Below, piece after piece: positions 14,176 through 56,036 of a stretch of DNA of 64,000 bases. The notes under the pieces were generated by a model. The model was not told where the DNA came from. It made no database searches and saw only the letters and a program-made list of their open reading frames with translations. The stretch comes from Moniliella sp. 'wahieum'. Its lineage: Eukaryota. The position numbers were made by a program, and so were the translations under genes. Every line of letters starts with the position of its first letter. The stretch's first letter is position 1. The stretch lies in contig RSEE01000102.1 of the NCBI GenBank assembly GCA_003971905.1, forward strand, positions 62,001-126,000, given 5' to 3'.

Positions 14176-16507
14176 TCAGCGTCGGCGCCTGGGAGGAAGG
14201 GGCTCAGCCAAGCCGACGGCTTCCGCCTCGGCGGCCAACTCGGCTAGTTCATCTTGCATTTCCTCCTCGAGGGTGGGACGGGCAGGTGGGGGGAAGGAAG
14301 AAGCGAGGGGTGCGGGTGCGCGGCCGCCGTGCTTTCCATCGCATCCATGGCTTCTTCCCGCACCTTGGTAGCCTGTACTTGGGCGCGCAGCGTGTCCCGC
14401 AGCCGACAGAGACGAAGTACATGTTGGTCCGCGGCGCGTTGGGCGATCGACTGGGCAGCAATCACGTTCGTATTTGCCTTGTGCTGTTCCTCCAGAGCCG
14501 CACGGAGCTCGTCACGTTCCTGCTCCAGGTGGAGTGTATCGGACTGGATGGTACGCAAGGCGTGTCGTACCTTCCTGCTCTCTGCCAGTACGTCGCGTTC
14601 GGCGGCAGTCAGGGTATGAAGGCGTTCTGACAAACGCGTACGCCGCGCCGCCAATCGTTTCTCGTCCAACAGCGCCGTCTGCTTTTCAATCAACATATCT
14701 GCCGTTTGCGTAGCAGAATGCGGGTTTGCCATCGTACCTTCTCGCCAGGCTCGATGAAGGGGCCAGTAGCCAAAAAGGGATGGGAGCGACCGTCTTTGCG
14801 CGACTCGTCTCCTTCCCTCCGAGCCCACATTCACACCCGTTCGCACCGCTTCTGACGCCGCATCTTCCTCGGCCGCCTGGGCGTGCGCCAGCTCAATAGC
14901 CGTCATGGGCTGCCCCAACTGCGGGGCCAACTTGACATCGATCGCAGCCATGGCCGATTGACTTGCGCCGACGCCCAAGCCGTCATAGGAGGAAGCAATG
15001 GCCGTAGCTGGCGGGCACGTCTTGGTGTCCGAGGTCAACACGTTGCCCAACACATCAATGTGAGGGCTGTACGTAGCGCTGCGGACCAACATAGCAATCA
15101 CCTGGTACGGCAATGCGAGTAAATTCCATTGTGGAATCCGCGGCTCCACCACCACCACGGGGCCTACATGGGTCTTTTGCACAATGTCCGCATCGGTATC
15201 GTCCACAGACACCACGCTCGGGAGCGGGCACGACAACGGAACGAACCATACCGCTTTGGCAAGGAGGATGGAGGTGTCGCTGAGCGACTGCGGACCGTCT
15301 TGGACCAAGTTGGCCAGCGCTGTACGCGCATGCAAGGGTACGTGCGAGCTGGCGCGGATCTGGTCCGCAATAAACAGCCGATGGGACGCTGGCCAGCTCG
15401 TTGGCGGCGGCACGTCACCAGCATCGCCCACGCCAGGCAGAAGGGAGAAACATCGCGCATCGGCTCGGGGTCGCAGACGATCCAATGCATCCCCCGACTC
15501 GATGCCCCGCCGGTCCAGGGTAGGCGACCAGCGGATGGGCGCGGCGGTCGCGCGCCACGCATGGTCTCGCAGGTCCAGCGCGACCGTGCGCTGGCCGGGC
15601 AAGACCAGCTCGGTGGAGCCGTGCGGCGGCGGGGCGGAGACCGAGTGGGGAGACGAACGCGGGCTGGGAGAGGTAAGGGTGGAAGAGCTGTGCGGGGACA
15701 GCTGGACCACACCGGCCAGTTCGGTGCTGGCCAAAGGGGATGCGAGCCGGGGCGTTTGGCGGGCGGGGAGGGGCTGCTGTCCTGGCCGCTGGCAAGAGGA
15801 GGGAGTGAGGACGAAGAGCGCGAATGGAGGCTGCGATAGAGAGGCTGGGTCTGGAAGGTGGCGGGCGAGTGGGCTTTGGTGCTCGGCGTCCGCGGCGAGA
15901 GAGGCGAGGCGGCGGAGGGAAGGGGGTGCCGATGGCGGCCCCTGGAAGGGACGGGCGGGAGAGGGGGCGTCGCGAAACAGGGGTGTTGAGGGGCCGGGAG
16001 CAGACGCAGGGGGGGTCCTGGGGGGGGGCGTGCGGGGGAGGCGGAGCGGGAGGCAGAGCGGGGAGCAGAGCTGGGGGGCGAGACGGAGGTGGACTTGTGA
16101 TGGAGATGGGGTTGGAGTTGGGGTTGGATGGGGGATGGTGTTGGAGTTGGAGGTGGGCGGGCGTGGGCGTGGCGGCGGGCGCAGAGTCGGAGCTGGAGAT
16201 GGAGATGATGTTGGAGCGGCCGCTGGAGCTGGACTGGGAGCTGGACTGGGAGCTGGACTGGGAGCTCGAATGGGCGCTGGAGTGGGCGCTGGAACTGAAG
16301 CTGGAACCGAAGCTGGAGCCCGAGGCAGAGCCCGAAGCGGAGCCCGAAGCGGAGCCCGAAGCGGAGCCCGAGCAGAGCCCGAAGCGGAGCCCGAAGCGGA
16401 GCCCGAAGCGGAGCCCGAGGCGAGCCCGAGCTGGACGGCGAGCTGGAGCTGGTGGTGCTCGCAGAGCCAGAGCTGCGGCGGGAGCGAGCGGGAGTCGTGC
16501 GGCCCAT
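14176..16507 (-). CDS. Hypothetical protein: Ser/Pro low-complexity N-terminus, C-terminal coiled coil
   Basis: Long open frame within ORF 14244-17501; heptad-rich C-terminus (LIEKQTALLDEKRL..LEQERDELRAALEEQ); probable intron ~15251-15174; head-to-head with SPP2 across an E-box. Family not recognised. Confidence 0.6.
16195..16450. repeat. 12-bp and 6-bp coding minisatellites (GCCCGAAGCGGA)n and (GGAGCTGGACTG)n
   Basis: Tandem copies directly visible. Confidence 0.9.
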
Positions 16508-16627
16508 GTCCGGCGTCGTGCTCGTCGTGCTCGCCGTGCTGCTCGCCGTGTCCCAGGGCCGGGGCGAGGGAGGTGGTGGTGGTGAGGCTGGCGTGTCGCG
16601 CGCAACGCAATGCCGTGCTGTGCCTGG

Positions 16628-16641
16628 GCGTCACGTGACGC
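16628..16641. promoter_or_regulatory. 14-bp palindrome GCGTCACGTGACGC (E-box) in a divergent promoter
   Basis: Perfect palindrome in the ~160-220 bp gap between head-to-head genes. Confidence 0.6.
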
Positions 16642-16667
16642 GCCCTTGACACGCAGAACACCAATCG

Positions 16668-18147
16668 ATGGGCCCAAGATTTTCTTTCCAAGTGCCGCCG
16701 CCAACGCCGCCATCGCGCCCCACCGCCATGAGCGTCCAGCGCGCCGCGGCCTTTGCCGCCGACCAAGACGACGGCGAGGGCAGTGGAAACGCCGCCGCCG
16801 CTTCGTCCCACACCCTCACCACCTTCCACCACGGCCAACGCCCTGCTGCTGAGCGCGCCGCCGAGCGTGCCGCCGCGCGTGCCGCCCATGCTGCCCGCCA
16901 CCGCGTCATCCCTGCTCTCCCTGACGACGACCTGCGTGCCCGTGCCCGCGCCCGCGCCCAAGCCCAAGCCCAGCCTCCTTCCCACCCGGATCCGTCCCCA
17001 GAGACGGTCGGCGGCGCTCCTGACCGTGTTGGTCTCTTCCTGCCCACCGCGCGCCGCGCGCCGCACCCCAGCGTAGCCTAAGCTCCACCCCCCACCCGAC
17101 CGCCAAGACGGGTCCCGCGCAGGCACGCCCCCTTCTCCCGAGGCGGAATTGGAAGCTGCGGCCCGCGCTGCCGTTCTATCCGGTCGCTCTGCTATGGATG
17201 CCAGGCCGGACCAGGCCGCGATCCCACTGAGCGCGGCCAACGAGCTGTACCAACTGCGGCAAGATGTGCACGATCGGCCGGATGCGCCGACAGAGGCGGC
17301 GTACGCTGCCACGCCTGTCGAGGGATTCGGAGCGGCGATGTTACGTGGGATGGGGTGGAAGCCTGGGCAGGGTGCAGGTAGGAGGCGCGACGGGCCAGAA
17401 CACGCTCCGGAGCACAAACGCCGTCCTGCACTTCTTGGCTTGGGCGCTGCGCCTAAGCTGACGGAATTGCTCGACAAGCGCTCTGGCGCTTCGCATGCCA
17501 AGCCTGCTGCTGTTCGTCAACAGGCTCGTGACTATCGCCCCATTTCTCGCCGCGAACGTGCGAAAGAGGAAGGCGCGGGAGATGGCCCGTCAAAGCAAGC
17601 CCCAGCCTCGGACAAAGATGTGAATCGGCAGTCCGAGCCAAGGAGCAGTCGTCGGCACGATGAGGACCGCCGATCTCACCAGAGGGACGAGGGGAGCCGT
17701 TCTCACCAAAGGGACGAGAGCAACCGTTCTCGTCGTAAAGACGAGGACACCCGTTCTCACCGTGCGGATGAGGACCGCCGTTCCCAACATCGCTCCAGCC
17801 AGCACTCGTCGCATCGGGACGACCGGCCTCGCTCCGATTCTCACCGTTCCGATCGTTCCCGGTACCGATCGCATTCCTCTCGGTATGATTCCTCACGAGC
17901 TGAGCGCCCCCGCCATGAGCGTTCCCATCGTCCGAGGGACAGGGATGCGCGCGAGCACGAGCGCGAGCGCGAACGCGAACGCGAACGCTCCCTTTCCCCG
18001 AGGGGAGCCCAAGAAGATAGTGCGCCCTCCCACCGCCCACACTACATATTTGAATCGAGAAACCCGCCCATGTCATGCATCATGTCGCTTCTACGAATGC
18101 CCATTTACTCGCTCGGTTTTTGGACGAAATCGACCGAGAACAGATAA
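16668..18147 (+). CDS. SPP2: Pre-mRNA splicing factor Spp2/Cwf28 (G-patch_2) with R/D/S/H-rich tail
   Basis: RPDAPTEAAYAATPVEGFGAAMLRGMGWKPGQG..KRRPALLGLGA is the Spp2/MOS2-type G-patch. Confidence 0.88.
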
Positions 18148-18571
18148 TGTGGCTCTCAGAGAAAGCCAGGGGGCTGGTGCTCGTTGGTGAAATAGGGTGT
18201 GCGCTTCCCGCAACGCCATCGATACTCTCTCTTTTCAATTCGTTCGGGTAAAGACGCAAAGACTCCGGAAGCACTGCGAACCAACCACACTGATATCCCC
18301 GCGCCGAGACGTTGGTCCAGGCGCGGATCGGAAGCCGCAGAAAGGCACCACAACAACTCAAGCGTTCACCATATGGACTTTGACCGCACAGAAGGACCTA
18401 GGCCACATTCTCCCTCGCAGCTTCTGGTGTCCTTCTGGTGTCCTGAACATGTTCAGTCCGCTTGGGAAGACCATCTTGCACCGCCAGCGATCAAGGATCA
18501 TCGATCAAGCTTCAAGGCACCGCTTCGGACAACCTTTACGTATTCCAAGCATGTTTTTGTTTGAGCAAGTG

Positions 18572-18656
18572 TCTCCGATAGTTTAGTGGCTATGACACGT
18601 CCCTGTCATGTTGACGGACGTTCGGACGAGACCGGGTTCGATTCCCGGTCGGAGAG
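18572..18656 (+). tRNA. tRNA-Asp(GTC) with a ~14-nt intron (18609-18622)
   Basis: Acceptor stem TCTCCGA/TCGGAGA, anticodon stem CGTCC/GGACG with CT-GTC-A|C, T-arm CCGGG-TTCGATT-CCCGG, discriminator G, T5 terminator at 18660-18664. Confidence 0.92.
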
Positions 18657-21600
18657 AACTTTTTGTCATGCTCTACCCGAAGCAGCGTGACTCGAGACGG
18701 CAGTCTCCTACACACACATTACCACCATTTCTCATCACTATACGTGGGAGAGATTGTTCTCTCTTGGGTATTCAACGAGGGAAAGCCAAGAGCTCTGCGG
18801 AGGGCGTGGTGATTTCACTTGGCTCACACGCCAAAAACGAGTCGTTAGAACTGTTCACCCACACGTACGAGAACAGATACAGTAGTGGGAAGTGTCTCTC
18901 TCTTATAGTTGGTCTGCCAGCGAACCCTCTCTACCCATCGGGAACGTCTGCACGTTGCTCTCTACTAACCTCCGGCGAGGGATCAGACGAACACCATCAC
19001 ACAACTTTTTCTTTGTCTCTCCCCCTTCAGTTCTGGCATATATGTGTGGGAAATACATGCAGCTAACTACGACATCCGCCACCACAGTGAGGGACATATA
19101 TACCAACAATGAAATCGCCCTTCTCTGTGCACCTCCTCATATGGTAACTCTATACTCTCAGTGACTAGCTCTGGACGGCAGACGGTCTGTGAATGTGGAC
19201 AGAGCAGTAAGTGGGGTATCCTCTTGGACGTGTTCCCTTCTGAGTACCCCGCGTGCTGACCACTCAGGCTACTGAGGCCGCTACATGTATACTGAGAGTA
19301 ACATGCGGCTCTCACATTGGCTGCTGCGCTGGGCAATCAAGCGAGCAAAAAAAGCAGTGACATGGGGGGGAGCCGTTGCCAGTACAGGCGAACGAAGGGA
19401 ATCGATAAGCTGAAAACTAGTAGAGGCATCTTTTTCTTATATCATTGTCAAAGGTGAAGGAAATCTTAGAGGGACTGGGATGAGATATCAGGGTTCATAC
19501 CTAAAACGGTCGTCAGAAAGAGAGGATACTATAGAATAGAGATTATTGTCGCACCGAGAAAAGCGAAGAGATCACACAGTCTGTGGATCCTCATGAGAGA
19601 CCCACAGTTTTCGTCCCCCACAGCTTACATTTCTTCCAATGGAATCCACATGAGATCGTTCAGAGTTTACCGTCGACCTGACTGTATGTTTCCTTACAAA
19701 ACGGTCTATGACATTGAGTCTGCATATATAGTAGATGTGCTTGCGAAAACTGAACGGTAAACGTCCCGTGTGTGGACACCAGTGAGTACGAGTAGTACTA
19801 CTCTCTGACGGGTCACACACCCATTCCCGCCAGCTATGTGGGTATGACCATGTTCTAGATCTTCCTTGATTCCTTTACGTCTCTTTCCCCTCATCACGCG
19901 CGTGGTTTACCGTCTGATTCTTCTTCTCCTCCGGTTATAAGGCACCATTCCATACAGCCTGAATGAATACCATCGGCATCCAAAGCAATCTCCTTCCTAC
20001 TACACTCTCACCGTTGGTATTGAGACCTGAACTGTGACGGGGTTGCTGGCGTCCCAGGGGAGACCTTCCCTGCCCATCGGGACAAGACTCACGGAGGACG
20101 GAACGCGATTCAGATCCAAAGCCCAAGGAGCACTGGCATGAACGTTGGAGTGTCGTGAGCAGTGCTTTACTGTGGTCGTCGGACACAAAACCAGGCATAG
20201 TCCCCTGGAATTTGCTGGTTAAGGGTCGGAGGATCAAGCGGGGAGTCCTGATGAGAGGAGGGAGGGTATAAGCGAGCTGATGGGAAAGGTGGCTCTTCTA
20301 GAGTGGAGTTGGCCTAGAGAAAGGATGAAGGGGAAAGGAAGGAATCAGAATGGTGGGCGGCTTGGGTCATCACAACTGGATCTAAGAACATGCAGGTTTT
20401 ATAGAAGAGAAAGGGATCCAAGGGAAGACCAACAGGTTTACAGAAAAAGGGGGGACGAGTCAAAAGGAAGCAGTGAGGACCAAGCGCGAGAGGCACGAGG
20501 TGAGATACGAGGCGAGGGTCAAGGGCGAAGTGGACCCGAGACGAGAAACGAGGCGGGAGAGCGGGTCGAGATCATGTGTAGCGTTTTGGATTTTTAGTCG
20601 AGTGCGAGCGGAGAAGAGACCAATTGATATGGATTTGTAGATGTGCTGAGAATCCGAGTCACGAGAGCGAAGGATAGCAAACTTGAGTAGTGATAGGTAG
20701 AGAATCCGAGACGCGAGAGCGACGATGAGAGGAAGTGGCGGTGGCGCGACTTAATCGTCGCTCCGTGACATGAGCAAGCCCTGAGTCTAGGACGTTGAAC
20801 GCCATATTGGACCCAGAGCCTCTGCCGCTCGTCCAGAGGAAACTGCTGGTATGTAACAGGACGGTGTACCCACACATCTTGAAGTCTTCCGTACAAGTAC
20901 TCTGTAGACTCCGCCTCATCGAACGAATTTAGGGAACACACGATATAGTATTTTGTTGATATGCAACGTCGACAGTAGTGTGATTCACAAGCCCTCGACG
21001 CAGTGGTGAACGTCTATCCTTTTGACCCCTCTCGCGTTTCCCGAAACGAAGCTACCATCCGACCCTCCTATATCTTCTCTCTCTCTTCAAGCTTCACATT
21101 ATATCTTCTTCCCTTCCTCGCACGCACCGTCTATCCCTAAAGGAAAGACCAACTCACACGTTCCTACAAAATATGACTTTTGATTAGCTTGTGATGATAA
21201 ATTTGGTCACTCGCTGGCCGACATGATGCCGGCCACACGTTATCGGTATACCTTGTGTGTATGTCCATCCACCACCTTTTGTCTTATCGAGTATTTATCA
21301 TTCCGGATGTGGCCATGATGCTATCCACGACTGAGCCCCAACGGCCTAACGCGCTGATGCGCTGCTGATGTTACATCATGGTCAATTCATACTACTAAGG
21401 GAACTCTCAGGGTACTCCCGTATCATTTGCGAAACTGGTGCAACAAGGAGAGGAGAAACGCTTCCCTCCTCGACACCAGTCTTTCGCTAATACTCTTGCG
21501 TTTTTGGTGCCGACAGCGCTTTCCAACGTCGTCTCTTGTGACATGAGAGCGCTATCGTTGTTGTTTTCACGCGAAGACGAGATAAAGATTAAGCGACCGA

Positions 21601-24600
21601 CGGGCGCGCTATCTCCAGAGTGTAACATGCGTGTGAGAGCATATGAGCTCTTTTCCCCGGCGAGTTTGTGCAACAGGATCGCCGCTTTGGGTGTGGCGCA
21701 AACCTCTGTGGGACATGTGACACACGTGAGGTGAAATGGGACAGTCACATCTGAGATCTGACCGCGGGAGCGCATGGAGATCGGAGAGGACTAGGTGTAT
21801 TGGTGTATTGTCACATGCATCACATGCCATGTCACATGTCATGCATCATGGGGTGGCCGGTAGGTATACGTTCCAAGGTCTCTAAGGCCTGAAGCGAGTG
21901 AGTAACGGGTATACTATAAAGACGGCAGAGTGCAAGCTACAGTGCATGTAGAAGGTCAGGACCAACCTGAGGATAAGGAAGTTAATATGCAGATCACTGA
22001 GCTATGAAGTGCCGATATGAGCTCTTGAGAGATGGTCGAGGTGATTGGAGTGATGCAACGATCGACATACGTGCATGCTGAACTTCAGCGGTAAGCGATA
22101 CCATGCGCCAACAACATGAGGATACGCTGCAGCTTCATAATGCATAACCTAACCCAAGCATCAATAAGCTTCAAGCTTCAAGCAACTTGAAGCTCGTGTC
22201 CATCTGGGCAAACTTAAGAGAGAGATAGCCAATGTAAGCGGAAAAGGGTCGTTAATGGATGTTGGCATGGCCGCGTGGTAGATGCCAGCACACGCGACGA
22301 AACTACTATACCATCCCGGCCATCACATCCCCTCTCACCGACGACAACGGAGCCGAGTTTATTCGGGCGTACCACTGAGTGACTGGAGTGACCCGCGAAG
22401 ACGTAGTTACTGGTTACCGGTTACCGGTTACACCGTTTATCGATTATCCTCTCTGTTTGAGCTTTAAGCTGTCACTCTTTAGACTGTGCCGCCTCAGCCT
22501 GAGGCCTGAGGTACACATAAACGTGAAAAAGACCGGAGCTGACGGGTGTGATACAGCAGCTGGCAGGCAATCCAATATCCAACGATGCCACCTTTCCGTC
22601 ACCATTCGCTTCGTGTCCAAACGATGGTGCCGAAGACGACAAACGCGTCTTCCGTCCCCCCTTGGGATTTTGCCAGGATGTGATTTTGAGTGGAGAGGTA
22701 AGCAGTATATAATGGGAGAAGATGTTGGACATGATAGAAGACGTCGGACGAGTGACCCACACTCATGTATAATGTCGGTAGCGCCGTGCGCGTGAAGCTC
22801 GACAGGAATACATCTCTGACAGAGTGACAAGTGACCGGTTACCGGTTACCGGTTACCAGGGACTAGTGATTAATGATTGGTACGATTAGTGACTCTGGTC
22901 ACCCGGTCACAGTCACTTGACATACGTGTCTTCCACCCACGCACATGGCCCAGAAAATAACATGCGCGAGAGCCTGCGTGTCGGAACTCTCTGATCTGAT
23001 GGGGTCGAGACGGGCAACATATAGGAACGAGGTTTGTTGGAGATGATCGATGACACGGACACGAAAATGCCCTGACACCCGGGGGGCTCAGAAGCCAGTC
23101 ATGTGCATGAGCGATAGTCATGGCCAGGTCCAGAACCCAGTTCCTAGATACATGCGGGCCCATCAAACGCCCCAAGGTATATTTTCTTCCAGCACATGGT
23201 CGTGCGCAGTGACTAGTGACTAGTGAATGTCATATTCTGCGAAGATAGTGGTGGGTTGGCTGGATGGCAGGGGATGCCGGTACAGGGCGGATTATGAAAA
23301 GAGTTTAGAGTGAGATGTAGCATGCTTCTGTTCCTTGTTGCGCATCTCCACGTGTCCTGATGACGGGGACAGGTGACGCGACGTGCCATACATGGCGTGG
23401 CCAACATACAGGCCATGCACATTGGCCGAAATTGCGAGCACAGCACAGAGAAGAGTGGACGCCGGGACGGGAGAAACGGTGGGAATGGACTTATCGGTTA
23501 CCGGTTGCGCGTTACGCGTTACGGTGCATGGACAAGTGTCCATGTGGATGTGCGACTGCAACAGAAGGCAAAAGGTACGTGAAGATACGAGGGTACATAT
23601 GTGTTGCGTCTCCCTCCTATATCCACACTGCGTGCACTACTACTGTGCCGAACTATCGACCACCAGCTAGGATGCAGGAACTCTTCGCCGAAACATTGTG
23701 AAACGGAGGAACGCACGGATGGCTCGGTGCTCATGCGTCGTGGATTGCCTGACTGCGCCCCCCTGCTACCGTATCTGCTGTTTTGAGCGATGGTGATGAT
23801 CGGCGGCTGTCCGAGCTGGCGTTAAGCTTTAAATGGGGGGCAGAGCCTTCCAACGCCGAGGCGCCGGTGGGAGCAGTCGAGCAGTCTAACTAGCAGTGCT
23901 CGTAGCCAGCAGCCACATGCTTCCCAGCACTCTGCGCCCCTGCGCCCACCCATCCACACTGCCCGCCTGCGGCTGCCCTGCCACAAGAGACGTGTCTGTG
24001 CTGCTGCAGTACCTCAGTACTCAGTACTCGCATGCCACACCCACTCACCCTATCACGTGTCCCTCGCGTGTCCATGTCGGTGTCTGCGCTGCCGTGCGCC
24101 GCTGCCCCCTGTGCGCCCCCACTGATCAAGTTGGCTAACGACCGGCCACCGTGGCTGCGGCACACGGCGGCCGCGCGCACCAGCTCAACGTTTAGTATGT
24201 TCAACACGGCGTGGCCACTCGATCACTTCGGTCACCAGCAGCAGCCTGCACTCTCAGATCTCATGCCTCCCTCCCTGCCTCTCTGTCGCCCATTCGAGCT
24301 GCAAACTAGCTTCAAGAGGCTACCACCGATACCAGGCCGAACCGCCAGGTGACTAGTGATCGATGATCGCCGCGATCGACATGCCCAGCAAAGCAGCAGT
24401 GTGTGGAGCAGCGCTCAGATGGGATTCGTGCTAAGCGCTAAGCGAGCCTTCCTCTCCAGATCACAGCATGCGCACAGTCACTAGTCGATGTTGTTCGTTC
24501 CACTTGAACCTCCGCCCCACAGCGCCCTATTCCTCCGAGGGGTTATTACCGGTTATCGATTATCTCGGTGTACATATAACCCCTGCTGCCGCACCCACAA

Positions 24601-37676: not shown

Positions 37677-40600
37677 ATGGCCGCATACGCCCCGCGCGCA
37701 TCCGAGCGCCTGTCGGAGCTGCCCAGCATCCGCAGCGACACGGTCGCCGCCAGCCTGCGCGACGCTTCCTCTCTGGCTTTGTCTACACCGACCTCAGCGA
37801 CAGTGTCCTGGTCGCCCTCAACCCCTTTGCACCGCCGCCGCCACCGCCACCGCCGCCGCCCCAGCCACCCCCGCTGCCGCCATGGCCTCCGTCAACGCCC
37901 TCGAGACCTTGCGCGAATACATTGCGGATGCCCGCGAGCCCCACAAGCAGCGCCGCACCGGCGTCTTGCCTCCCATCTCTTCCAGCTCATCGGGCGCGCG
38001 TACTACTACATGCTGCGCACGGCCAGGACCAATCGATTCTTATCGAGTACGTTCGTCTTCCTTCTTGTCTCTCTCTCTTCATATTTCCCCATCTATCTTC
38101 GTATATTTTCCACATCTTTTCCCCCCTCTTTCCCCATGACACGAATACCCGCATTCTTTTTTGTACATTATTATGCCCATACATATACTCTGTGGTTTCC
38201 GTTAAGAATGCTAGGCACCCTTCCTCCCAATATCTTTTGCTGACTCTTCTTCTCACCGTAACTCCCGCAGCGGTGAAACAGCGTCGGGCAAGTCGGAGAT
38301 CCGTCGCTTGGGTGTCAAGGCACTCGTCGAACTGGGCGTCCCGCCCCCAGGCAAAAAAGGGAGCAAGCTAGCATACCAAGTCCCTGCCGCCGAGTTTATC
38401 CTTGACAGTTTCAGCAAACACTTTGCCTCGGACAATGCCGACGCATCAGCCGCTGTGCGGTACACTGAATTGCAGTACACCGAGGCAGGCAAACTGGTGG
38501 GCTGCAAATGCTCGAGTACTACCTCCAGAAACGGCTGGTTGTCGAACATGCCTCAGGTGACCGCACGTTTCATGTACTCCATTACCTCTTTGCTGGTGCG
38601 TCCGACGAAGAAAAGGAGTTTCTCTCCTTCCCATCCGTGTCCGCAGAGCAGTCAGCCTCCCTTTCGGTACCTTCACGGCGCAGGAAGTCGAGCCCTTCAG
38701 CCTGGATTTCTTCGTGCCGATGCACTCAAGTTGGCCAAACTCAAACATGCATTCAAAAACGTAGGCATGAGCCAACGTCAAGTGGCTAACATTTGCCAAA
38801 TCCTCGCCGCCATCCTCCACCTGGGCAACCTGGACTTTTACCAAGACTCCAACCGTACCGCTGACCCGGCCCAAGTGCGAAATGGGGAAACACTCGCCTT
38901 GGTCGCTCGTTATCTTGGCGTGGCCACCAAAGGGTTGGAAGAAGCGCTTACCTTCCAGACCAAGCTCATCCGCCACGAAGTGTGTACTGTGTTGTGTGAC
39001 ACGCAAGGCGCCGGGGCCAACCGGGATGAGTTGGCCAAGACACTGTACAGCCTCCTTTCCACCTGGATTGGCGAACAAATCAATTCCAAGCTCAGTCGAC
39101 AAGATTTTGATTGCTACGTGGGGTTGGTCGACATGCCCGGATTTGTCGCGACGCCCCTGATGGGCGGACGGTATGGGAGCGCCGGTTTTCGTCGTTGGAC
39201 CAACTGGTTACTAATTTTGCTACCGAGTATCTGCATCGCTGGTGCCTTCACTCGCTTTGAGTCGAAAAAGGACGAGTATGCCGACGAGGGCTTGAGCGCG
39301 ATCCTGCCCGAGGTGAGCTACTTTGACAATTCGGAAAGCTTGCGTCTCTTCCTCAATCGTCCCGGTGGCTTGGTTCACATTATCGATGACCAGTCCCGCC
39401 GGATGCCAAAGAAGACGAATCACACGATGGTCGATGCGTTTGGCAAACGTTGGGGCAACCATCCTGCGTTCAAAGTGGGTCCTATCAGTCGTTCCGGATT
39501 CGCCACATTTACCATCTCGCACTACGCTGGACCGGTTACCTACTCATCGGAAAACCTATTGGAACAGAATAACGAAAAGATCAATTCGGACTTTGTTCGG
39601 CTTTTGGCCGGCGCGCACGGCGGGCACACGTCATGAACGCTCGCCTGGTTCCAGCTCTAGTTTTGTCCGTGGCTTGTTTAGTTCCAAGACGCTCAAAACC
39701 ATCTCGGATCCGCGCAACGACCAAGCGGTCGTTGTGGCGCAGCAGTCGGTTGAGCCCACTCGTACCCCGTCGGTACGGCGAAAGAATGGGGCGACGGGAG
39801 GTTTGACCCGGGCCGGCACGGTGCGCCCTAAAGGGGCCAACAACAAAATGGCGGATGACGACGAGGATAATTACCAGCAAGACAACGAAAAGCTTTCCAA
39901 GGCCACCATCTGTGGTGTGATGGGCGAGTTTCAAGAAGCGCTCGAAGGCCTGTTTGACACGATCAACAATACCAAACCGTGGTTTGTCTTTTGTATCCGT
40001 CCCAATGAGAACCAAATTCCGAACCAAGTGGAGGTCCGGTTGGTCAAGGACCAAGTTGCCCTGCTCGGTTTGGCCGAGATGGCGCGTCGGTTTGTCACCG
40101 AGTTTAGTGTGGGAATGACATACGTTGAATTTTGCCAACGGTATGCCGAGACGGCGTCGTTGGAGAAACTCGATATGGGGTATGCTCAAGGAAGTGAGGC
40201 GATGAAGAAGGTCGCCGACGCAAAGGAGGTGATGGACTGGGACGATTACCATGCTGCCCTAGGACGGTCCAAGGTCTTTCTGGCTTTTGCCTCCTTTCGG
40301 GAGCTGGAGGACGAGCTGCGGATTGGCGATCCGGACGAAATGCGAGCCCACAATCGACGTGTCCTGGCCGACCAACAGGCCTTGGCCCGGCAAGAACACG
40401 TGGACCCTTACTCCTGAGGGGCTGGTGGACGAGACATCGACGGGTCGGCTGCCTGTGGACGAGATGGATACGGTGGCAGATCATGGTACGACCGATATGG
40501 AACACAATCGCACATTTACACTGGGCGACGACGGTAGGGATGCCGACCAGTTTCTTCCTCCTCCGGTAACCATGGGAAGCGGAGGGGGCGGTGGCCCCGA

Positions 40601-43600
40601 TGCACGTAGTTTGGGATCCGAACTGAGCCGTCCCGACGGTTCCGTCGCTGCCGCGTCGGTGGCCTATGCCCCGTCGGAGAATATGTTTGCTGGATTGCCA
40701 GCTGGCGTGCGCAACGGTGCGTCGGGCCAAACCAACGCCGAGGATGGGGACGAGGAGGTGATGCGCAAACTGGGAGATGAAGAGGAAGGAGCAGTGGCGG
40801 TGGAAGAGGAAGCGACGTCGGCGCGTAAGGAATGGGTCGTATTACGTGGGCCTTGACCTTCTGGATCCCCAGCTTGGTTCTCAAGTGGTGCGGGATGAAG
40901 CGTTCGGACATTCGCCAGGCATGGCGGGAAAAGCTGGCCATCAACATGATGATCTGGCTTGTCTGCGGGTGCGCCGTCTTTGTGATCGCCGTCATGGGCC
41001 GCATCATTTGCCCCACCCAGCACGTGTACAACCAGCAAGAGTTTTCCAACCACAAGAACCCAGCCCATGCCTTTACGGCCATCCGGGGCGAAGTGTTCGA
41101 TCTGACCAAGGTAGCCAAGACCCACCTGTCTACGATTCCGTCGTGCCGAGCAAGCAGATTATGCGCTATGCGGGCCAAGATGCCACCCCCCATCTTCCCC
41201 GTGCAAGTCAATGCACTGTGCAACGGAGAGTGACGGGCTCCATCTCGCCCTGGGTTCAGCTCTCCTCGACCAACGAGACCGACACACAACATGCAGTACC
41301 ACGACTTCCGCTCCATTCACACCACGGATGCTCGCCCCGACTGGTACTACGAGCAGATGTGGGTGATGCGGTATACGGCCCGGGTGGGATTTTTGGGGTA
41401 CACCAAGTCGGGGTGAAAACTTTTGTTAGCGACGGCCGCATTGTGGCGATTTACGATGACAAGGTGTACGAGATTACCGATTATGTCAACCAGGGCGACC
41501 AAGGCGTGCTTCAGGCTCCGGACGGGCAGCAGGTACCCGATGGGATCAGCCCTGTGATCCTAGATCCATCGATCGTGCAGCTGTTCAAGTCCGCCCAAGG
41601 CGGCGACATTAGCAAGAAGATGCGCGATCTCAAGATCGACCCGGCTGTGATGGCGCGCCAAAAGGTCTGTCTTCGTAATCTGTATCTCATTGGCGAGGTG
41701 GATCATCGGAGCGATGCGGCTTGCAAGTTTGCCAATTACATCCTTCTTGCCCTGTCGATCTTTATGGTATCGATCATTGGCTTCAAGTTCTTGTCGGCGC
41801 TTCAGTTCTTCGCGCATCAGATGCCGCCCGAACAGGACAAGTTTGTTGTTTGCCAAGTGCCGTGCTACACTGAGGGTGACGAAGAGATCCGCAAGACGGT
41901 CAATTCCCTCGCTAGCCTCAAGTACGACGACAAGCGCAAGCTGCTCCTGATCATCTGCGACGGAATGATCGTCGGCAGCGGCAACGATCGTCCTACGCCG
42001 CGAATCGTGTTGGACGTATTGGGGGCCAATCGCAGGTGGACCCCGAACCGCTCTCCTTCCTCTCCCTAGGCGAGGGCACCAAGCAACACAATATGGCCAA
42101 GGTGTATTCGGGGCGTACGAGCATTTGGGCCACGTGGTTCCTACCTTGTTGTGGTCAAGGTGGGCAAGCCTAGCGAACGGTCCCGGCCAGGCAACCGGGG
42201 CAAACGGGATTCGCAGTTGATCCTCATGCGCTTTTTAACAAGGTCCATTTTGGTTCGCCCATGAACCCGATGGAGTTGGAGATGTATCATCAAATCAAGA
42301 ACGTGATTGGCGTCAATCCATCCTTTTATGAGTATGTGCTGCAAGTGGACGCCGATACCGTGGTGGACACCATGTGTCTTGCCCACTTTATTTCCTTTTT
42401 CTCCAAAGACAAGAAGGTCATTGGCCTTTGTGGCGAAACGGCCTTGAGCAACGCCAAGGAGAGCATCATCACTATGCTGCAAGTATACGAGTACTACATC
42501 TCGCACTACCTGACCAAAGCGTTCGAGTCGCTCTTCTCTTCCGTCACATGTCTTCCCGGCTGCTTTTCCATCTTCCGCCTTCGTACCCCGACCACATCGG
42601 CCCCTGTTTGTGGCCACCTCTGTGGTGGAGGAGTACAGTGAGAATCGGGTGGACACGCTGCACACCAAAACCTGCTCCATCTGGGCGAAGATCGGTACCT
42701 CACCACCCTGGTTCTCAAGCATTTCCTCAGTTCAAGACCCAGTTCTACAGCCCCGCCAAGTGCAAGACGACCGCACCCAATTCATGGCAGGTACTGTTGT
42801 CCCAGCGTCGTCGTTGGATCAATTCGACGGTGCACAATTTGTTTGAGCTGATTTGGACCCCGGGACTGTGTGGGTTTTGCTGTGTACGTCGTCCTCCATG
42901 CTTTGTGTACACTTGATTTGTTTTTGCGGCAAGGGAAGAGAGAACCGATGTATTGACACGTTCAACCTGCAGTTCTCCATGCGATTTATCGTCATGATCG
43001 ATCTTCTGTCTACAGTGATTGCACCTGTTACGGTGGCTTACATTGTGTACTTGATCGTCGTTGTTGCCACGCACGAAGGCAGTATCCCGCTCACCTCGAT
43101 CATCTCTCTGCGCCATCTACGGCCTGCAAGCGGTCATCTTTTCTCTGCATCGCAAGTTTGAGATGATTGGGTGGATGGTTGTCTACATTTGTGGCATCCC
43201 CGTCTGGTCCTCTTTCTCCCGCTCTACTCGTTTTGGCACATGGACGACTTTCCTGGGGCAACACGCGCGTCGTGACCGGCGACACGGGCAAAAAAGTAGT
43301 GATCCACGACGAGGGCACTTTTGATCCCACCGAAATTCCCCTCAAGACGTGGGCCGAGTACGAAAACCGAGTTGTGGGACCAAGGCTCCAACCGATCGGT
43401 CGGCTCCCTGCTCGACGCGCATACCGACTTGGACACCAAATCCGCCCAAGCGGGCTTCGCATCGGACTACGGCTCGGTGGCCAAGTCGTGGGCGTCGGGG
43501 TATGCGGGAAGCAACTTCGTGCCTCCCAAGGGGGAAGGCAGTCTGTTTGGCCACAGCCCCTGGGACGGGGCGGGGTCGGTGTATGGCGCGGCGGGCGTGC

Positions 43601-44056
43601 ATCTAGAGGGTTCGATGATGAGTGGGTACCCGCTGCCTGCGCCCGCCTTTTCGGGACAGGGAACGGTGCACCCAGCTGGCTACCCGTCGGGCGTGCCCAG
43701 CCCGTTGCACTATGGGCCCGGCTCGGTGCACCGTTCTCTTCCCTCGCGCTCGGTGCACAACGGATCGGGCCAAGGGTCCCACCTGGGTCACGGGTACGGC
43801 GGCTATGTCGGTCCGGGCGCGTGGCGGCGCCCGCATCGTTGCGCGAAGGAGGGTACGGTGTCCCGTCCGGCGCGCCGTCCGAGGCGGTTTGGAGGCGGAT
43901 GTGCGCGCGTTGCTTGCCTCGTCCGATTTGTCCGTCTTGACCAAGAAGCAGGTCCGACTGCAGCTGGAGCGCAAGTACGCCACGTCGCTCGCGGACCGCA
44001 AAGTGTGGTTGAACCAGACGGTGGAACGGTTGCTGGCGGAAACAATGGGAGCGTGA
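37677..44056 (+). CDS. Class V chitin synthase with N-terminal myosin motor, cytochrome-b5-like region, GT2 synthase domain and DEK_C (Mcs1/CsmA-type)
   Basis: P-loop [10 protein letters not shown] after an intron (~38270); [106 protein letters not shown]-terminal [15 protein letters not shown]. Confidence 0.96.
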
Positions 44057-51475: not shown

Positions 51476-51879
51476 GGGCCTTACGGTAGCACTCTAGCAC
51501 GCTACCACTCTGACTAGTGACTGCCTCTGTCCGAACGGACCCCCCCGTGCGCGGTGCGCGGTGCCGCGGCGGGCAGGGAAGGAACAGGAACGTGCAATGA
51601 TGGAGTATTGAATGGGGGCCTCACGGAACGGAAAGAGAAGGAAAGGAAAGGGAAGGGAAGAATATGACATTGGCGACGAACGGCGAACTGCCCGGCGAAC
51701 GGCGAACCAGGGTGGGGTAGATGCGTGGCGAGTATGGGTGAGGGACCAGGACAGCCAGGCCGGCAACGAAAGGGAGGGGAGGGAGGGAGGGATAAACAGA
51801 ATGCAAGGGGGGTGCGGGGGGGGGGAAGATGCGATGCTTCGAAAACTGATGGAAAACAAAGTGACCATTCTGGCCCGGT

Positions 51880-53952
51880 TCTTTCCTGTTCGTACAGCGC
51901 TGTGAGCTCGGGGTTGCGATCTAGTCCAGCTGGGCGTGCGATCGCCCGTCTGCGCAGGCGGCGGGGAGGGCAGTGCCGCTTGTCCCGTTCGCTGTGGGGC
52001 GGGGCGAGAGAGGTGGCGCGGCGGGGGCAAGGAGGTGAGTGGGGATGCAGCAGGAGGAGAGAGGTGCGCTTGGGGTTGAGTTTGGGGTTGGGATTGAGTT
52101 TGGGGTTGGGATTGAGTTTGGGGTTGGGATTGAGTTTGGGGTTGGGATTGAGTTTGGGCTTGGGCTTCTGCTTGGGCTTGGGCTTGGGCTTGGGCGTGAG
52201 CTTGGGCTTGGGCGTGAGCTTGGGCTTGTGTATGGACTTCTTGGCAGAATGCGCGGAAAATACCAAAGGTGGTCCAGAAGAGATCTTTGGGTCGGGTGAG
52301 GATACCAAAGTGGGCAAACAAGTCGACTGGGGGGATTTCGAGGACCCAGTGACCGTAGGTATCGTAAGTGACTGGACGGGGGGTGCGTCGTCCGCGGCGG
52401 AAGCCGAGGCACGGCGTTGGGCGGCCTTGGCCCCGCGTCGGGCAAAGCGGCTGGCAGTCTTGGGCCAGTAACGCGCGACCCAGGTTTGGATGTACGTGGA
52501 GGCCTTCATGAATTTTTTGCTGGCGTACTTGCGGTGGAGGTAAGGGTGGCAAGGGGGACGCAACGTATAGTCCACCATCAACTCGGCTGTTGTCAATAGT
52601 TCCTCTTGTGTGTAGCCCGAGTAGTGGACCAAGGTGGGTCCCCACGGCCCGCGCTGCAGCACCTCGCGCGCAAGGAAGAGCGCAGCAGCGGCAATGACCG
52701 ACGGAGGGTGCCCGATGAACCGGTAGTCGACCGTGCTTATCTCAATCAGGTACTTGGCCAGAGTACGCGTTTGGATATCGTAGTCGTCCGCTTTGGAGAT
52801 GCGACGGAGAAAGTTCATGGGGTTCGGGTAGGACAGGTCAAAGGACAACGTGCGCAACAGGTACCGTTCTGCCTCCAACAGTTCACGTTCCGTCACGGTA
52901 TCCTTGCACACGTACACAAAGTTGGTGATCGACGGTACCAACACCTCCTCGTACTTGGCTGCGATAAAGAGGGCGGTGATGCCGACCAACTGCAGCTTGG
53001 ACAGCGAAACGAAACGAATCGACAACAATCGGTCAATCAGGTTGACCGCCAAAAGAGGGTTTCGGGAATGAGGTGAAAGCGGTTGTGGATGTTGATGAGC
53101 CAGTCGATCAGCACGCCCCGTTCTTCCCACGTAATGTCGTCTTGGAGATCAATGTACTTTGGATTGGGTATCGTCTTGGCCTGATTCGATTGCCATGATC
53201 ACACACGAGCGTCAGCACGCTCTGCCTGCTCCCAGGCCAACCCAACCCAACCACCCCGCAGAAAAGCACACAACGGAGAGCAACGTACCTCGAGCGATTT
53301 CATGTGCTCGAAAACGTCATTGACATATTCGGCGACCATCAACGGGTCATACCCATCCTGCGCGTCCAAGTCCACCCATCCTTCATCGTCGAGACGACGC
53401 GGCTTAAGGACGCGCTTGATCTGCCGGGTTGCATTGCGCGACAGCGGAAAGGCAACGGTAGTATCATAATCGTTAGGGCAATCCGCAGCACGTTCACTAT
53501 CGTTAGGGCAATCCGCAGCACGGACGCGCTTCCGCTTACGTTTCTTGCCGTCTTGTGCCGCGGCAGGGGCGGTGGAGGCGGGTGGGTCGGCGGCGCGTGG
53601 GCGCTTGGTGCCGTGTGCACGAGCGGGACGCACATCGGGGGGGCAGTGGAGGCGAGAGTGGGATGGGACGGGAAGGAGGAGGAGGAAGTGGCATGGCAAG
53701 AAGACGCGGTGGCTGGCTGGGCCCGCGCGGATCGTACCGGCCGGCCCGTGACGGGCCGGGGAGGTTTGGCTTCGGCGGGGGCCGGGGCCGGCGGGGGGTG
53801 GTTGGGATGCTTGGGCGCGAGGCTGCGGGCCACGCGCTGGGGGTTGGGGTTGGGGTTGGAGGCGCGGGCGCGGCGGCGGAACGCGTCGTGGGCTGCGGCG
53901 AGCACGGCGGGGGTGAGCGTGGGGGTGGCGGCGAGGGGGCTGGACGTACCAT
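51880..53952 (-). CDS. B-type (G2/M) cyclin
   Basis: ATG-only exon, intron 53949-53893; WVDLDAQDGYDPLMVAEYVNDVFEHMKSLE, intron, PNPKYI..WEERGVLIDWL..RFHLIPETLF-LAVNLIDR, KLQLVG..AAKYEE, YPNPMNFLRRISKAD, RKYASKKFMKAS. 3' end uncertain. Confidence 0.94.
52070..52230. repeat. 18-bp and 6-bp repeats in the cyclin C-terminal tail
   Basis: (GGGTTGGGATTGAGTTTG)x4 and (GGGCTT)n. Confidence 0.92.
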
Positions 53953-54413
53953 GGGCAGCAGACAGCACACCGGGATGGAGGGGGAGGCAGAAGGAGGAGG
54001 CAGAAGGAGGCGTGTGGTGCGGGGGCGCGCGTGCCAACCCTAGTGCTACCCTAGTGCTGGCCGCGTCGCGCTGGGCGACTGAAATTGCAATACGCACCCT
54101 GCGGTGATCACCCACCGTGTGCCTCGGGCGGCATCACACGCGTCGGGCATGGCGCCGGTCACGTGGCCACCACGCCCCCCCACAAAGCACGTGACCGCTT
54201 GTGCGAGGAGGGCCATAGATGGTCACCGGTCGTCTCGCGTGAATATTGAATCGCTTTCAGGGGCGAGGATGCTGGTCATTGACGTCATCGACGTCATTGC
54301 AGTCATTGCAGTCATTAACATTCCATTCCCAAGCACTCACCAACCATTTAAGGAGGTGGTAAGCGCACCAGCCACCCTCCATCTACTTCATCTACCTGTC
54401 TCCCTTGCCCCAG

Positions 54414-56036
54414 ATGGTGTAAAGGTACGTTCCCTCCCGCCTGTAAGACCGAGTGGATCGTTGCCCAGCTCACCTGTCCAGTCGGGCTCAGCTAACGCGC
54501 TATCCACCAACCCAGCCCGTCTCGGGCGAGGCAGCTCGCTGCGAGCGTTGTCGTTCTCGGTCCGGCGGCGGCGGGCAAGTCGAGCGTGATTTGGCAGCTT
54601 GGGTACCAGTCTGGCGCAGTGGAGCAGCCGACGGGGGACCGAGTGCGCCACGAGGCGGACCCTGTGGATCCAAGCTCCTTCCCCTATGCCCGGTTGCTTG
54701 ACCGGCTTAGGGCGGAGCGAGAGCAGGGACCTGAGCACGTACCTGCGCAGAACAAGCGACGCGAGAGGGAGGATGAGCAAGGGCAGACAGAATACCACGA
54801 ACCGGAGGCGAACCAAGCGATGTTGTACCCGCTCGAGACAGCCAAGTACTATGTGACGCTGCTGGACACGCGAGAAGATGAGCAGGGCGGGATTGGGAGC
54901 ACGTGTGCTGCGCTCTCCCAAGCAGACTGTGCCGTGCTTGTCGTTTCCGCTGCCAACCCCGAGCAAGTCGAGCACGACAGTGCGGAGGACGGGTCGATTG
55001 GCAAGCGCGTAATTCGTATCTTTGTCTTGGGCCTGCGGCAAGTGATCGTGGTGGTGAACAAGATGGATGCCATCTCGCCCGGGACCGATCCCAAGGCTCG
55101 GTTTGCGCAGATCACCCACCGGCTCGCACGCTTATTCGCCCGCGTTGGCTTCCGCCGCGAATCCATCGCCTTTGTCCCGCTCTCTGCGTCGACGGGGAGA
55201 ATGTGGGGGACAAGGGGGTTGGTGGTGGGAGCGGGATGGCGTGGTACGAAGGATGGCAGACCGAAACGCCGGTCGAGTACCGTTCGGGGAGGACACTGGT
55301 GGATGCGTTGGATGCTATGGACCCGCCTCGACGTCGGACCGAACGGCCACTCCGTCTTCCGGTACGGGAGGCGCAAGTGGAGAAGCGCGGAGACGGAGTC
55401 CGCATCCGCGGGCGCGTGGAAACAGGCATGCTCCGCCAGGGCATGGTGGTCACCTTGGCCCCGGGCAATGGGCCGATGCACGTCGAGGCGATCACGGCGG
55501 CGCTGCCACCTTTCCTTCTTCCCGAAGGGTTGCCCGGGGACCATGTGGAGGTGATGCTGCGTCAGCTGGCAGGCCAGAAAAATACGCGGCAGAAGCCACT
55601 ACCTATCCCGATTCCAATCCCAACCCTCACCGCCATCCGTGCGGGCTCGGTCGTTGGCGACCCGGCCACCGACCCGCCAAGGGAAGCACGTAGCTTCCAC
55701 GCCCACCTCCTCCTTCTGCAGCCGCACACGACGTTCAGACGGGGCTCGAGTGCGCTGCTCAGCTGCCACACCGCGCAGGTCTGCTGCACGCTCACGCACA
55801 TCCTGGCCAAGCTCGACCGCAAGACGGGACAGACGATCGCGCTGGCCCCGCCGTGTCTCGAGTCGGGCGAAGCGGCGCTGGTCCAACTTGTGCCGACGCA
55901 CCCCGTGTGCGTCGAGAGGGCGGCAGAGTTCGGGTCGCTGGGGCGGTTCATGATGCATGACGGGCACCAGACAGTGGCGGCGGGATTGATCCAGTCGGTG
56001 GAGACGGTGCACCCGGGCGAGGGCGGGACAGGATGA
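54414..56036 (+). CDS. Highly divergent eEF1A (EF-1alpha) paralogue, probable pseudo-GTPase
   Basis: Colinear with eEF1A end to end: VVVLGPAAAGKSS, SFPYARLLDRLRAEREQG, ETAKYYVTLLD, SQADCAVLVV, VNKMD, FVPLS, WYEGWQTET, PLRLP, GRVETG, PGDHV, DPP..SF.A, CHTA, KLDRKTG, LESGEAALV, VCVE..LGRF..D..QTVAAG. One indel near 55197. Upstream introns (54359-54413, 54425-54515) leave the start uncertain. Confidence 0.88.

Follow-up and report, generated by a model that had tools for sequence, protein, structure and literature searches.

Within a 64,000-nucleotide stretch of DNA from Moniliella sp. 'wahieum' (GenBank assembly GCA_003971905.1, contig RSEE01000102.1, positions 62,001 to 126,000 of the forward strand; hereafter "the window," in whose coordinates all positions are given), we analyzed a gene on the plus strand at 54414-56036 that encodes a three-domain homologue of the elongation factor eEF1A and is read in two frames. 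On re-reading, the coordinates and motifs that a first-pass annotation had assigned to this gene were confirmed. The G domain (54516..55190; "the G piece") lies in frame A, which has codons at 54514+3k and extends over 54514-55194; it matches the Pfam model GTP_EFTU (4.8e-12), and its best solved relative is eEF1A (4e-26). The linker, domain II, and domain III (55191..56033; "the C piece") follow in frame B, with codons at 55191+3k, and match yeast eEF1A (1f60; 6.7e-50) as well as the Pfam models GTP-eEF1A_C (1e-26) and GTP_EFTU_D3 (1.3e-15), before a TGA stop codon that we read at 56034-56036. Domain III, the best conserved of the three, is covered by GTP-eEF1A_C at 55692..55994 (C-piece residues 168-268). 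The Pfam model for domain II finds no match in the protein at an E value of ≤0.01; domain II nevertheless aligns to eEF1A and is modelled as beta strands with a high predicted local distance difference test score (pLDDT).

Comparison with solved structures by phmmer supports the earlier view that the gene derives from eEF1A and not from Hbs1 or eRF3: the C piece scores 173 bits against eEF1A, 106 against archaeal aEF1A, 72 against Hbs1, and 53 against eRF3, and the G piece scores 95, 70, 56, and 44 bits, respectively. The animal/fungal-specific insertion, which in eEF1A follows WYKGW and had been reported for this protein, is indeed present, since WYEGWQTETPVEYRSGRTL (55242-55298) aligns without gaps to yeast WYKGWEKETKAGVVKGKTL, and in the alignment it is missing from the archaeal aEF1A P0001 and from P0043. 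An Opisthokonta-specific insertion of eEF1A is named in PMC3699394.

The position of the gene within eEF1A is less well defined. In a careful tree of 29 rows (the gene, 23 canonical eukaryotic sequences, and 5 archaeal sequences), it falls within eukaryotic eEF1A with support of 100/100 against the archaea and is unplaced inside that clade; this tree and the quick tree described below were built without labelled EFL, Hbs1, or eRF3 sequences. Its terminal branch in the careful tree has a length of 10, which is the program's ceiling and about 90 times the median of 0.11. Identity to 16 canonical eEF1A sequences ranges from 36 to 39%, with three basidiomycetes ranking first by trivial margins, and clade-diagnostic columns are uninformative, as there are two fungal-type matches versus three holozoan-type matches and no basidiomycete-specific columns. 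Of the original proposal that the protein comes from a fungal eEF1A, the eEF1A part therefore stands and the fungal part does not follow from the tree, which leaves it resting on parsimony. A quick tree of 76 rows paired the gene weakly with P0061 (Shimodaira-Hasegawa-like approximate likelihood ratio of 84), but P0061 is a sequence from the tunicate Oikopleura dioica. With both branches long and a fungus joined to a tunicate, we read the pairing as long-branch attraction and rejected it. P0061 is itself degenerate, with GHSNSCKST, DASDEH, and DDME in place of the canonical motifs, and resembles the window protein in having an insertion at the same site of domain II. In the same quick tree, P0351, an eEF1A labelled as coming from the plant Anthurium, groups among fungal and aphelid sequences, which suggests that this record contains a contaminant.

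The guanine-nucleotide-binding motifs of the G domain divide into those that are kept and those that are lost, largely as first described. The G1 motif, or P-loop, reads GPAAAGKSS (54559-54585) and fits GxxxxGK[ST]; the G4 motif NKMD (55057-55068) is intact; and G5 is of the SA type, with its Ser retained. The switch I (G2) region at 54721..54813 has QGPEH in place of RGITI, followed by a charged insertion that measures about 25 amino acids by alignment (the replacement was correctly called, the insertion having been put at about 27 amino acids); no reading frame of this region restores GITI, and the corresponding G-piece residues 70-100 have a pLDDT below 50 in an AlphaFold2 model. At the G3 position (54865-54879), DTRED stands for DAPGH, a change that spares the Asp but removes both the Gly and the catalytic His (by alignment column, A92T, P93E, G94D, and H95E). 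Across the whole protein, the retained elements comprise GK[ST], D91, SQAD, NKMD, the G5 Ser, PLRLP, GRVE.G, PGD, CHTA, LGRF, and QTVA.G, and those lost from the G domain comprise H15/V16/D17, switch I, A92-F98 (including G94 and H95), and K100-G105.

Domain II is altered in a similar manner, as had also been observed. Its GGIG, EMHH, and PGDN motifs are replaced by RGDG, AALPP, and PGDH, and the strand T259-V262, the segment E291-H294, and N305/G307/F308 are lost through the changes T259V, V260R, P261I, V262R, E291T, M292L, H293P, H294P, N305H, G307E, and F308V. Each of these positions, which we take to form the pocket for the aminoacyl end of the tRNA, is unchanged across the 16 eukaryotic sequences and across at least 4 of the 5 archaeal ones. 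Domain II also contains an in-frame insertion of 18 amino acids (…QLAGQKNTRQKPLPIPIPIP…, 55557..55628), over which pLDDT ranges from 57 to 72 (C-piece residues 131-150). When all positions that are invariant in the 16 canonical eukaryotic and at least 4 of the 5 archaeal sequences are counted, the window protein keeps 35/76 in the G domain, 9/11 in the linker, 21/41 in domain II, and 24/36 in domain III. Stretches that are cleanly in frame are 35 to 41% identical to the canonical consensus, with the G domain at 35%.

Frameshift-aware alignment of canonical eEF1A to the DNA, with frameshift penalties of 6, 10, and 15, yielded no path that restores GITI or PGH; at a penalty of 6, the alignment accepts 12 extra micro-shifts for a small gain in score (729 versus 709), and still no motif returns. 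The statement in the first-pass annotation that the other frames hold no PGH or ITI codons is thus borne out by alignment, with the qualification that the third frame reads DAAGH at 54855-54869 and that AGRDW occurs off frame at 54882-54896, which together bear a faint resemblance to DAPGH-RDF. As a candidate for the true G3 motif, DAAGH was rejected: it overlaps the codons of the conserved strand YYVTLLD, which matches the canonical strand preceding the Walker-B Asp, and it is used by none of the optimal paths, even at a penalty of 6. Both off-frame matches lie over conserved in-frame codons and enter no alignment path, and we regard them as chance. Introns were likewise considered behind the two large insertions and the frame break and were rejected, as by our reading of the sequence no GT…AG pair has both a suitable length and a suitable phase.

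To look for orthologues, we searched a library of 1.84 billion representatives and recovered 2378 matches. The highest identity among these is 46%, over 126 amino acids; a homologue search with the C piece returned 10 archaeal aEF1A-like matches only, at 32 to 38% identity; a profile search for orthologues was swamped by canonical eEF1A; and cluster look-ups returned only generic EF-Tu/eEF1A clusters. Degenerate eEF1A-like proteins are not rare among uncharacterized library entries: 19 of 75 representative eEF1A-like rows are without the His of DxxGH, and 4 of these are also without the G3 Gly. None of these degenerate rows, among the best 150 of the 2378 matches, is nearer to the window protein than it is to canonical eEF1A. 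Separately, P0023 and P0144 are eEF1A-like sequences that have the opisthokont insertion, retain DVPGH and NKMD, and have switch I replaced, and P0072, which is aligned without the insertion, reads SGYK at the G3 position and NKID at the G4 position; these three may represent another uncharacterized eEF1A offshoot.

The indel near 55197 that the first-pass annotation flagged is present in the assembly, with frame A giving way to frame B between 55186 and 55197, where one base is missing relative to eEF1A. When the canonical eEF1A P0360 is aligned to the DNA, this is the sole frameshift at penalties of 10 and 15 (placed at about 55188). A GGGG run lies at the break (55194-55197), and reading it as one G longer produces FVPLSASTGENV, which is collinear with the eEF1A sequence FVPISGWNGDNM.

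Similar breaks occur elsewhere in the window. A chitin synthase aligned over 38455-42896 (+) shows 19 frameshifts over 4.4 kb but not a single stop in its 1482 codons, at 82% identity to P0162, and about 11 of the 19 frame corrections adjoin homopolymer runs of at least 4 bases. Further frame switches at contiguous Pfam profile positions occur in eIF5A (about 30.58 to 30.62 kb), twice in an amidohydrolase (about 29.17 and 29.78 kb), and in DnaJ_C (about 13.6 kb). Because essential conserved genes break frame in this way without acquiring stops, the assembly of the window carries many single-base indel errors, and because its essential genes are broken likewise, the break at about 55190 most probably stems from such an error at the G run. 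With such errors being common, the break is weak evidence of decay in the eEF1A-like gene. An unpolished assembly of this kind can make intact genes look broken, and claims about the locus depend on re-sequencing. The chitin synthase itself (38215-44047, +) is of the myosin-motor (class V) type, with Myosin_head, Cyt-b5, and Chitin_synth_2 domains, and its best named relatives, about 50% identical, are from Tilletiaria, Ceraceosorus, and Tilletia; other contigs reach 61 to 72%. By these matches, the G+C-rich fungal DNA of the window belongs to a basidiomycete near Ustilaginomycotina that has no closely related annotated species.

The 5' end of the gene is a predicted model in an error-prone assembly. 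Frame A contains no ATG between the P-loop and an upstream stop at 54493-54495, and, by our reading of the sequence, the only ATG-started exon that joins this frame consists of a putative start codon and two further nucleotides (ATGGT, 54414..54418). Following it would be an intron at 54419..54515, which we placed by fungal splice consensus, with a GTAAAG donor, a CTAAC branch site at 54492-54496 that contains the upstream stop, and a CAG acceptor at 54513-54515. The only ATG-started model thus requires a 5-nucleotide coding exon and a weak donor, and, taken together with the frame break, this means that the initial description of the gene as full-length and stop-free is not literally true.

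Despite its divergence, the gene has the properties of a coding sequence. The 227 + 281 codons (508 in total) include no stop, and each of the eight other indels relative to canonical eEF1A is in frame (+25, +1, +1, +3, +4, +1, +2, and +18 amino acids). G+C contents by codon position are 0.70/0.47/0.74 and 0.72/0.51/0.78 for the two pieces, matching those of neighbouring genes. As a comparison, neutral drift was simulated 200 times, with a canonical sequence back-translated as the starting point and each run continued to equal identity (0.39). Simulated sequences accumulated a mean of 8.4 stops (minimum, 3), and 0 of 200 runs were stop-free. The mean BLOSUM62 score at mismatches is -0.26 in the gene, versus -0.71 +/- 0.09 in the simulations, and the hydrophobic class is retained at 78% of positions, versus 62 +/- 4%; neither value was reached in any of the 200 runs. 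The absence of stops, in-frame indels, conservative replacements, and codon-position periodicity together argue that, through most of the time over which it diverged, the gene was translated into a folded protein. Structure prediction agrees with the intact fold originally proposed: AlphaFold2 models have a mean pLDDT of 78.3 for the G piece and 88.4 for the C piece, with low values only at the two insertions and the termini, and in a Foldseek search, the best match of the G-domain model is eEF1A (5lzs; TM score, 0.71), with Ski7 at rank 31.

We consider that the gene is probably live and encodes a real, lineage-restricted, fast-evolving paralogue of eEF1A maintained by selection as a pseudo-GTPase. 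According to the predicted mechanism, the three-domain fold and the guanine-nucleotide contacts (P-loop, NKMD, and SA-type G5) would be retained, whereas switch I, the Gly of DxxG, the catalytic His, and the domain II pocket are lost; owing to these losses, such a protein presumably could not work as a ribosome-activated GTPase or as a carrier of aminoacyl-tRNA and would not be an elongation factor. Given the intact G1, G4, and G5 motifs, it may bind guanine nucleotide without switching, and it would most likely be a noncatalytic binding protein, possibly locked in one nucleotide state. More tentatively, and with confidence somewhat short of even, we propose that it is a hitherto undescribed offshoot of the translational GTPases, an eEF1A-derived, rather than Hbs1-derived, pseudo-GTPase of a Ustilaginomycotina-like, deep-branching basidiomycete, and acts as a permanently nucleotide-bound or nucleotide-indifferent adaptor or decoy for a partner of eEF1A. 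The scaffold, actin, and decoy roles put forward in the first-pass annotation are speculative. What the analysis shows is the homology, the state of the motifs, selection acting on the reading frame and on the type of residue, and the proneness of the assembly to error. That the protein is produced, that it binds nucleotide, and that it has any partner or role are matters that we infer, and no result of this analysis indicates a partner or role.

Several observations weigh against this interpretation. No orthologue was found, in that the best 150 of the 2378 library matches are all nearer to canonical eEF1A than to the window protein, or equally near. None of the domains has escaped the loss of deeply invariant residues, no canonical surface is clearly preserved, and the amino acid composition of the protein is skewed. 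A consensus donor, GTACGT, lies at 54425, 6 nucleotides downstream of GTAAAG, and its use (ATGGTGTAAAG|GTACGT) would put a TAA in frame and yield M-V-stop. The rate of detectable breaks in the eEF1A-like gene is 1 in 1.52 kb, versus about 4.3 per kb in the chitin synthase, so that either the error rate varies along the window (from 0 to 4.3 per kb in the genes checked) or compensated errors are hidden; short compensated errors may lie in the poorly aligned stretches, and the frame break could be real. In the neutral simulation, the model of substitution is simple and the ancestor was obtained by back-translation, yet the margins are wide. The predicted fold is weak evidence, showing fold compatibility and not more, because the AlphaFold2 input alignment is rich in canonical eEF1A.

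Some of these same observations would be expected if the gene had died recently, that is, if a divergent paralogue long under selection were now a pseudogene whose break near 55190 and damaged 5' exon are real lesions. The single frame break at penalties of 10 and 15, the M-V-stop produced with the consensus donor, and the lack of an orthologue or annotated copy in the protein libraries searched all fit such a history, but a lone break at a GGGG run is also what assembly error predicts, the essential genes of the window (the chitin synthase with its 19 shifts, eIF5A, the amidohydrolase, and DnaJ_C) break equally without stops, and no in-frame stop occurs in 508 codons; we therefore judge a recent death to be unlikely. 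The older alternative of a duplicate decaying neutrally throughout its divergence, as a classical pseudogene, would account for the terminal branch of 10 against a median of 0.11, the lost catalytic motifs, the skewed composition, and the frame break. It is nonetheless extremely improbable, given that simulated neutral sequences carry a mean of 8.4 stops and are never stop-free in 200 runs, that none of these runs has replacements as conservative as those observed, that eight of eight other indels are multiples of three, and that the codon-position periodicity in G+C content is intact; decay of the duplicate, which the first-pass annotation had named as one outcome that would overturn it, is rejected by the simulation.

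A gene degenerate in appearance could also be a normal TEF1 disfigured by sequencing errors, for which the frequent indel errors of the assembly and the out-of-frame DAAGH at 54855-54869 might be cited. This is hardly credible: clean in-frame stretches remain at 35 to 41% identity, compared with 82% for the chitin synthase after frame correction; frameshift-aware alignment restores no canonical motif; and using DAAGH deletes the overlapping strand YYVTLLD. The protein might alternatively be the sole EF-1alpha of its genome, re-modelled and freed from constraint since EFL performs elongation (a "dual-EF" state). As reported in PMC3699394, Spizellomyces and Basidiobolus have EFL along with a divergent, poorly transcribed EF-1alpha that bears the opisthokont insertion. 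In the 64-kb window, tblastn with both pieces matches only the gene itself, such that there is no other EF1A-like gene and no canonical TEF1; the absence of TEF1, however, says little when its scope is 64 kb of a genome. Dikarya are known only with canonical eEF1A. The dual-EF fungi named in the source are a chytrid and Basidiobolus, not Dikarya, and the loss of both the G3 Gly and the His exceeds mere divergence, leaving this explanation very unlikely.

Returning to a selection-maintained pseudo-GTPase, its likeness to known systems is partial in each case. Few eukaryotic proteins evolve as slowly as eEF1A, for which many side jobs have been proposed. The window protein shares the three-domain architecture of canonical eEF1A/TEF1, which is its best match in both sequence and fold, together with the opisthokont insertion and the P-loop, NKMD, PLRLP, GRVETG, CHTA, and LGRF blocks. 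Unlike the members of that family, whose conservation is extreme, it is only 36 to 39% identical to them, sits on a branch about 90 times the median, has insertions of about 25 and 18 amino acids, and has switch I, the G3 Gly, the catalytic His, and the domain II pocket replaced.

Ski7 is a translational GTPase that has turned into a noncatalytic adaptor, with a long N-terminal partner-binding extension. The window protein resembles it in being a paralogue of a translational GTPase and in being predicted to keep the fold of the G domain with G2 and G3 lost, and the "GTPase-like" domain of Ski7 has been crystallized with GTP or with GDP and Pi, according to the titles of PDB entries 4zkd and 4zke. 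It differs from Ski7 in that its P-loop starts 16 residues into exon 2 and frame A is not continued upstream by any open coding sequence; it also differs in ancestry, as Ski7 is assigned to the Hbs1/eRF3 lineage in PMC4342817 and PMC2613156 and the window gene scores far better against eEF1A.

The divergent EF-1alpha proteins of dual-EF organisms (Kamikawa et al. 2013, PMC3699394) likewise have long branches, and the fungal ones keep the opisthokont insertion. A loss of elongation function, with only auxiliary roles kept, has been proposed for them, and a divergent EF-1alpha alongside EFL is also described from diatoms, oomycetes, and others (PMC3699394). These proteins are presented there as orthologous EF-1alpha co-occurring with EFL and are not shown, in the relevant passages of that source, to be extra paralogues; the fungi named are not basidiomycetes.

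A survey of translational GTPases (PMC4342817) lists eEF1A, EFL, Hbs1, Ski7, eRF3, eRF3-2, and the GTPBPs, and the portion of it that we draw on includes no eEF1A-derived pseudo-GTPase; nor is one described for fungi in the open-access literature that we searched. If the proposed reading is true, the gene would give the few known pseudoenzymes among translational GTPases a further member, one derived from eEF1A, and would isolate one of the side jobs of eEF1A in a single gene, without GTP hydrolysis or tRNA carriage.

Upstream of the eEF1A-like gene and head to head with it, on the minus strand, lies a cyclin B gene with Cyclin_N and Cyclin_C domains, and the spacer between the two contains E-boxes, both as previously noted. 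Two CACGTG sites occur in this spacer, at 54160 and 54188 (54160..54193), although with 35 such sites in the 64-kb window, this is mild enrichment only. The palindrome TGACGTCA (CRE/ATF-like; 54280..54287), followed by short GTCAT-type repeats, is one of only 2 such sites in the window by pattern count and may have a promoter role.

Within the cyclin B gene, Cyclin_C shares its frame with no more than the second half of Cyclin_N (profile positions 53-127), and the adjoining open reading frame did not yield the first half of the cyclin box; there is probably an intron or a further frame error at 53130-53200 (-). An 18-nucleotide tandem repeat of about 7 to 8 copies lies at 52068-52228 (-), inside the open reading frame at 51514-53130, and in the cyclin B frame it encodes (PKLNPN)n after Cyclin_C, as either a coding tail or a 3' untranslated region.

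Elsewhere in the window, the region at 18200-24400 has a lower G+C content (0.50 to 0.54) and contains none of the 150 longest stop-to-stop open reading frames, all of which are at least 110 amino acids long. Inside it, at 18572-18656, is a tRNA-like gene (Rfam tRNA, 43 bits) to which ARAGORN assigns no anticodon and which possibly contains an intron. The most G+C-rich part of the window (0.64 to 0.69) coincides with a 1090-amino-acid open frame at 14247-17516 (-) that has no Pfam match and is overlapped by several other long open reading frames on both strands; this frame may represent a low-complexity protein or an artefact of high G+C content.

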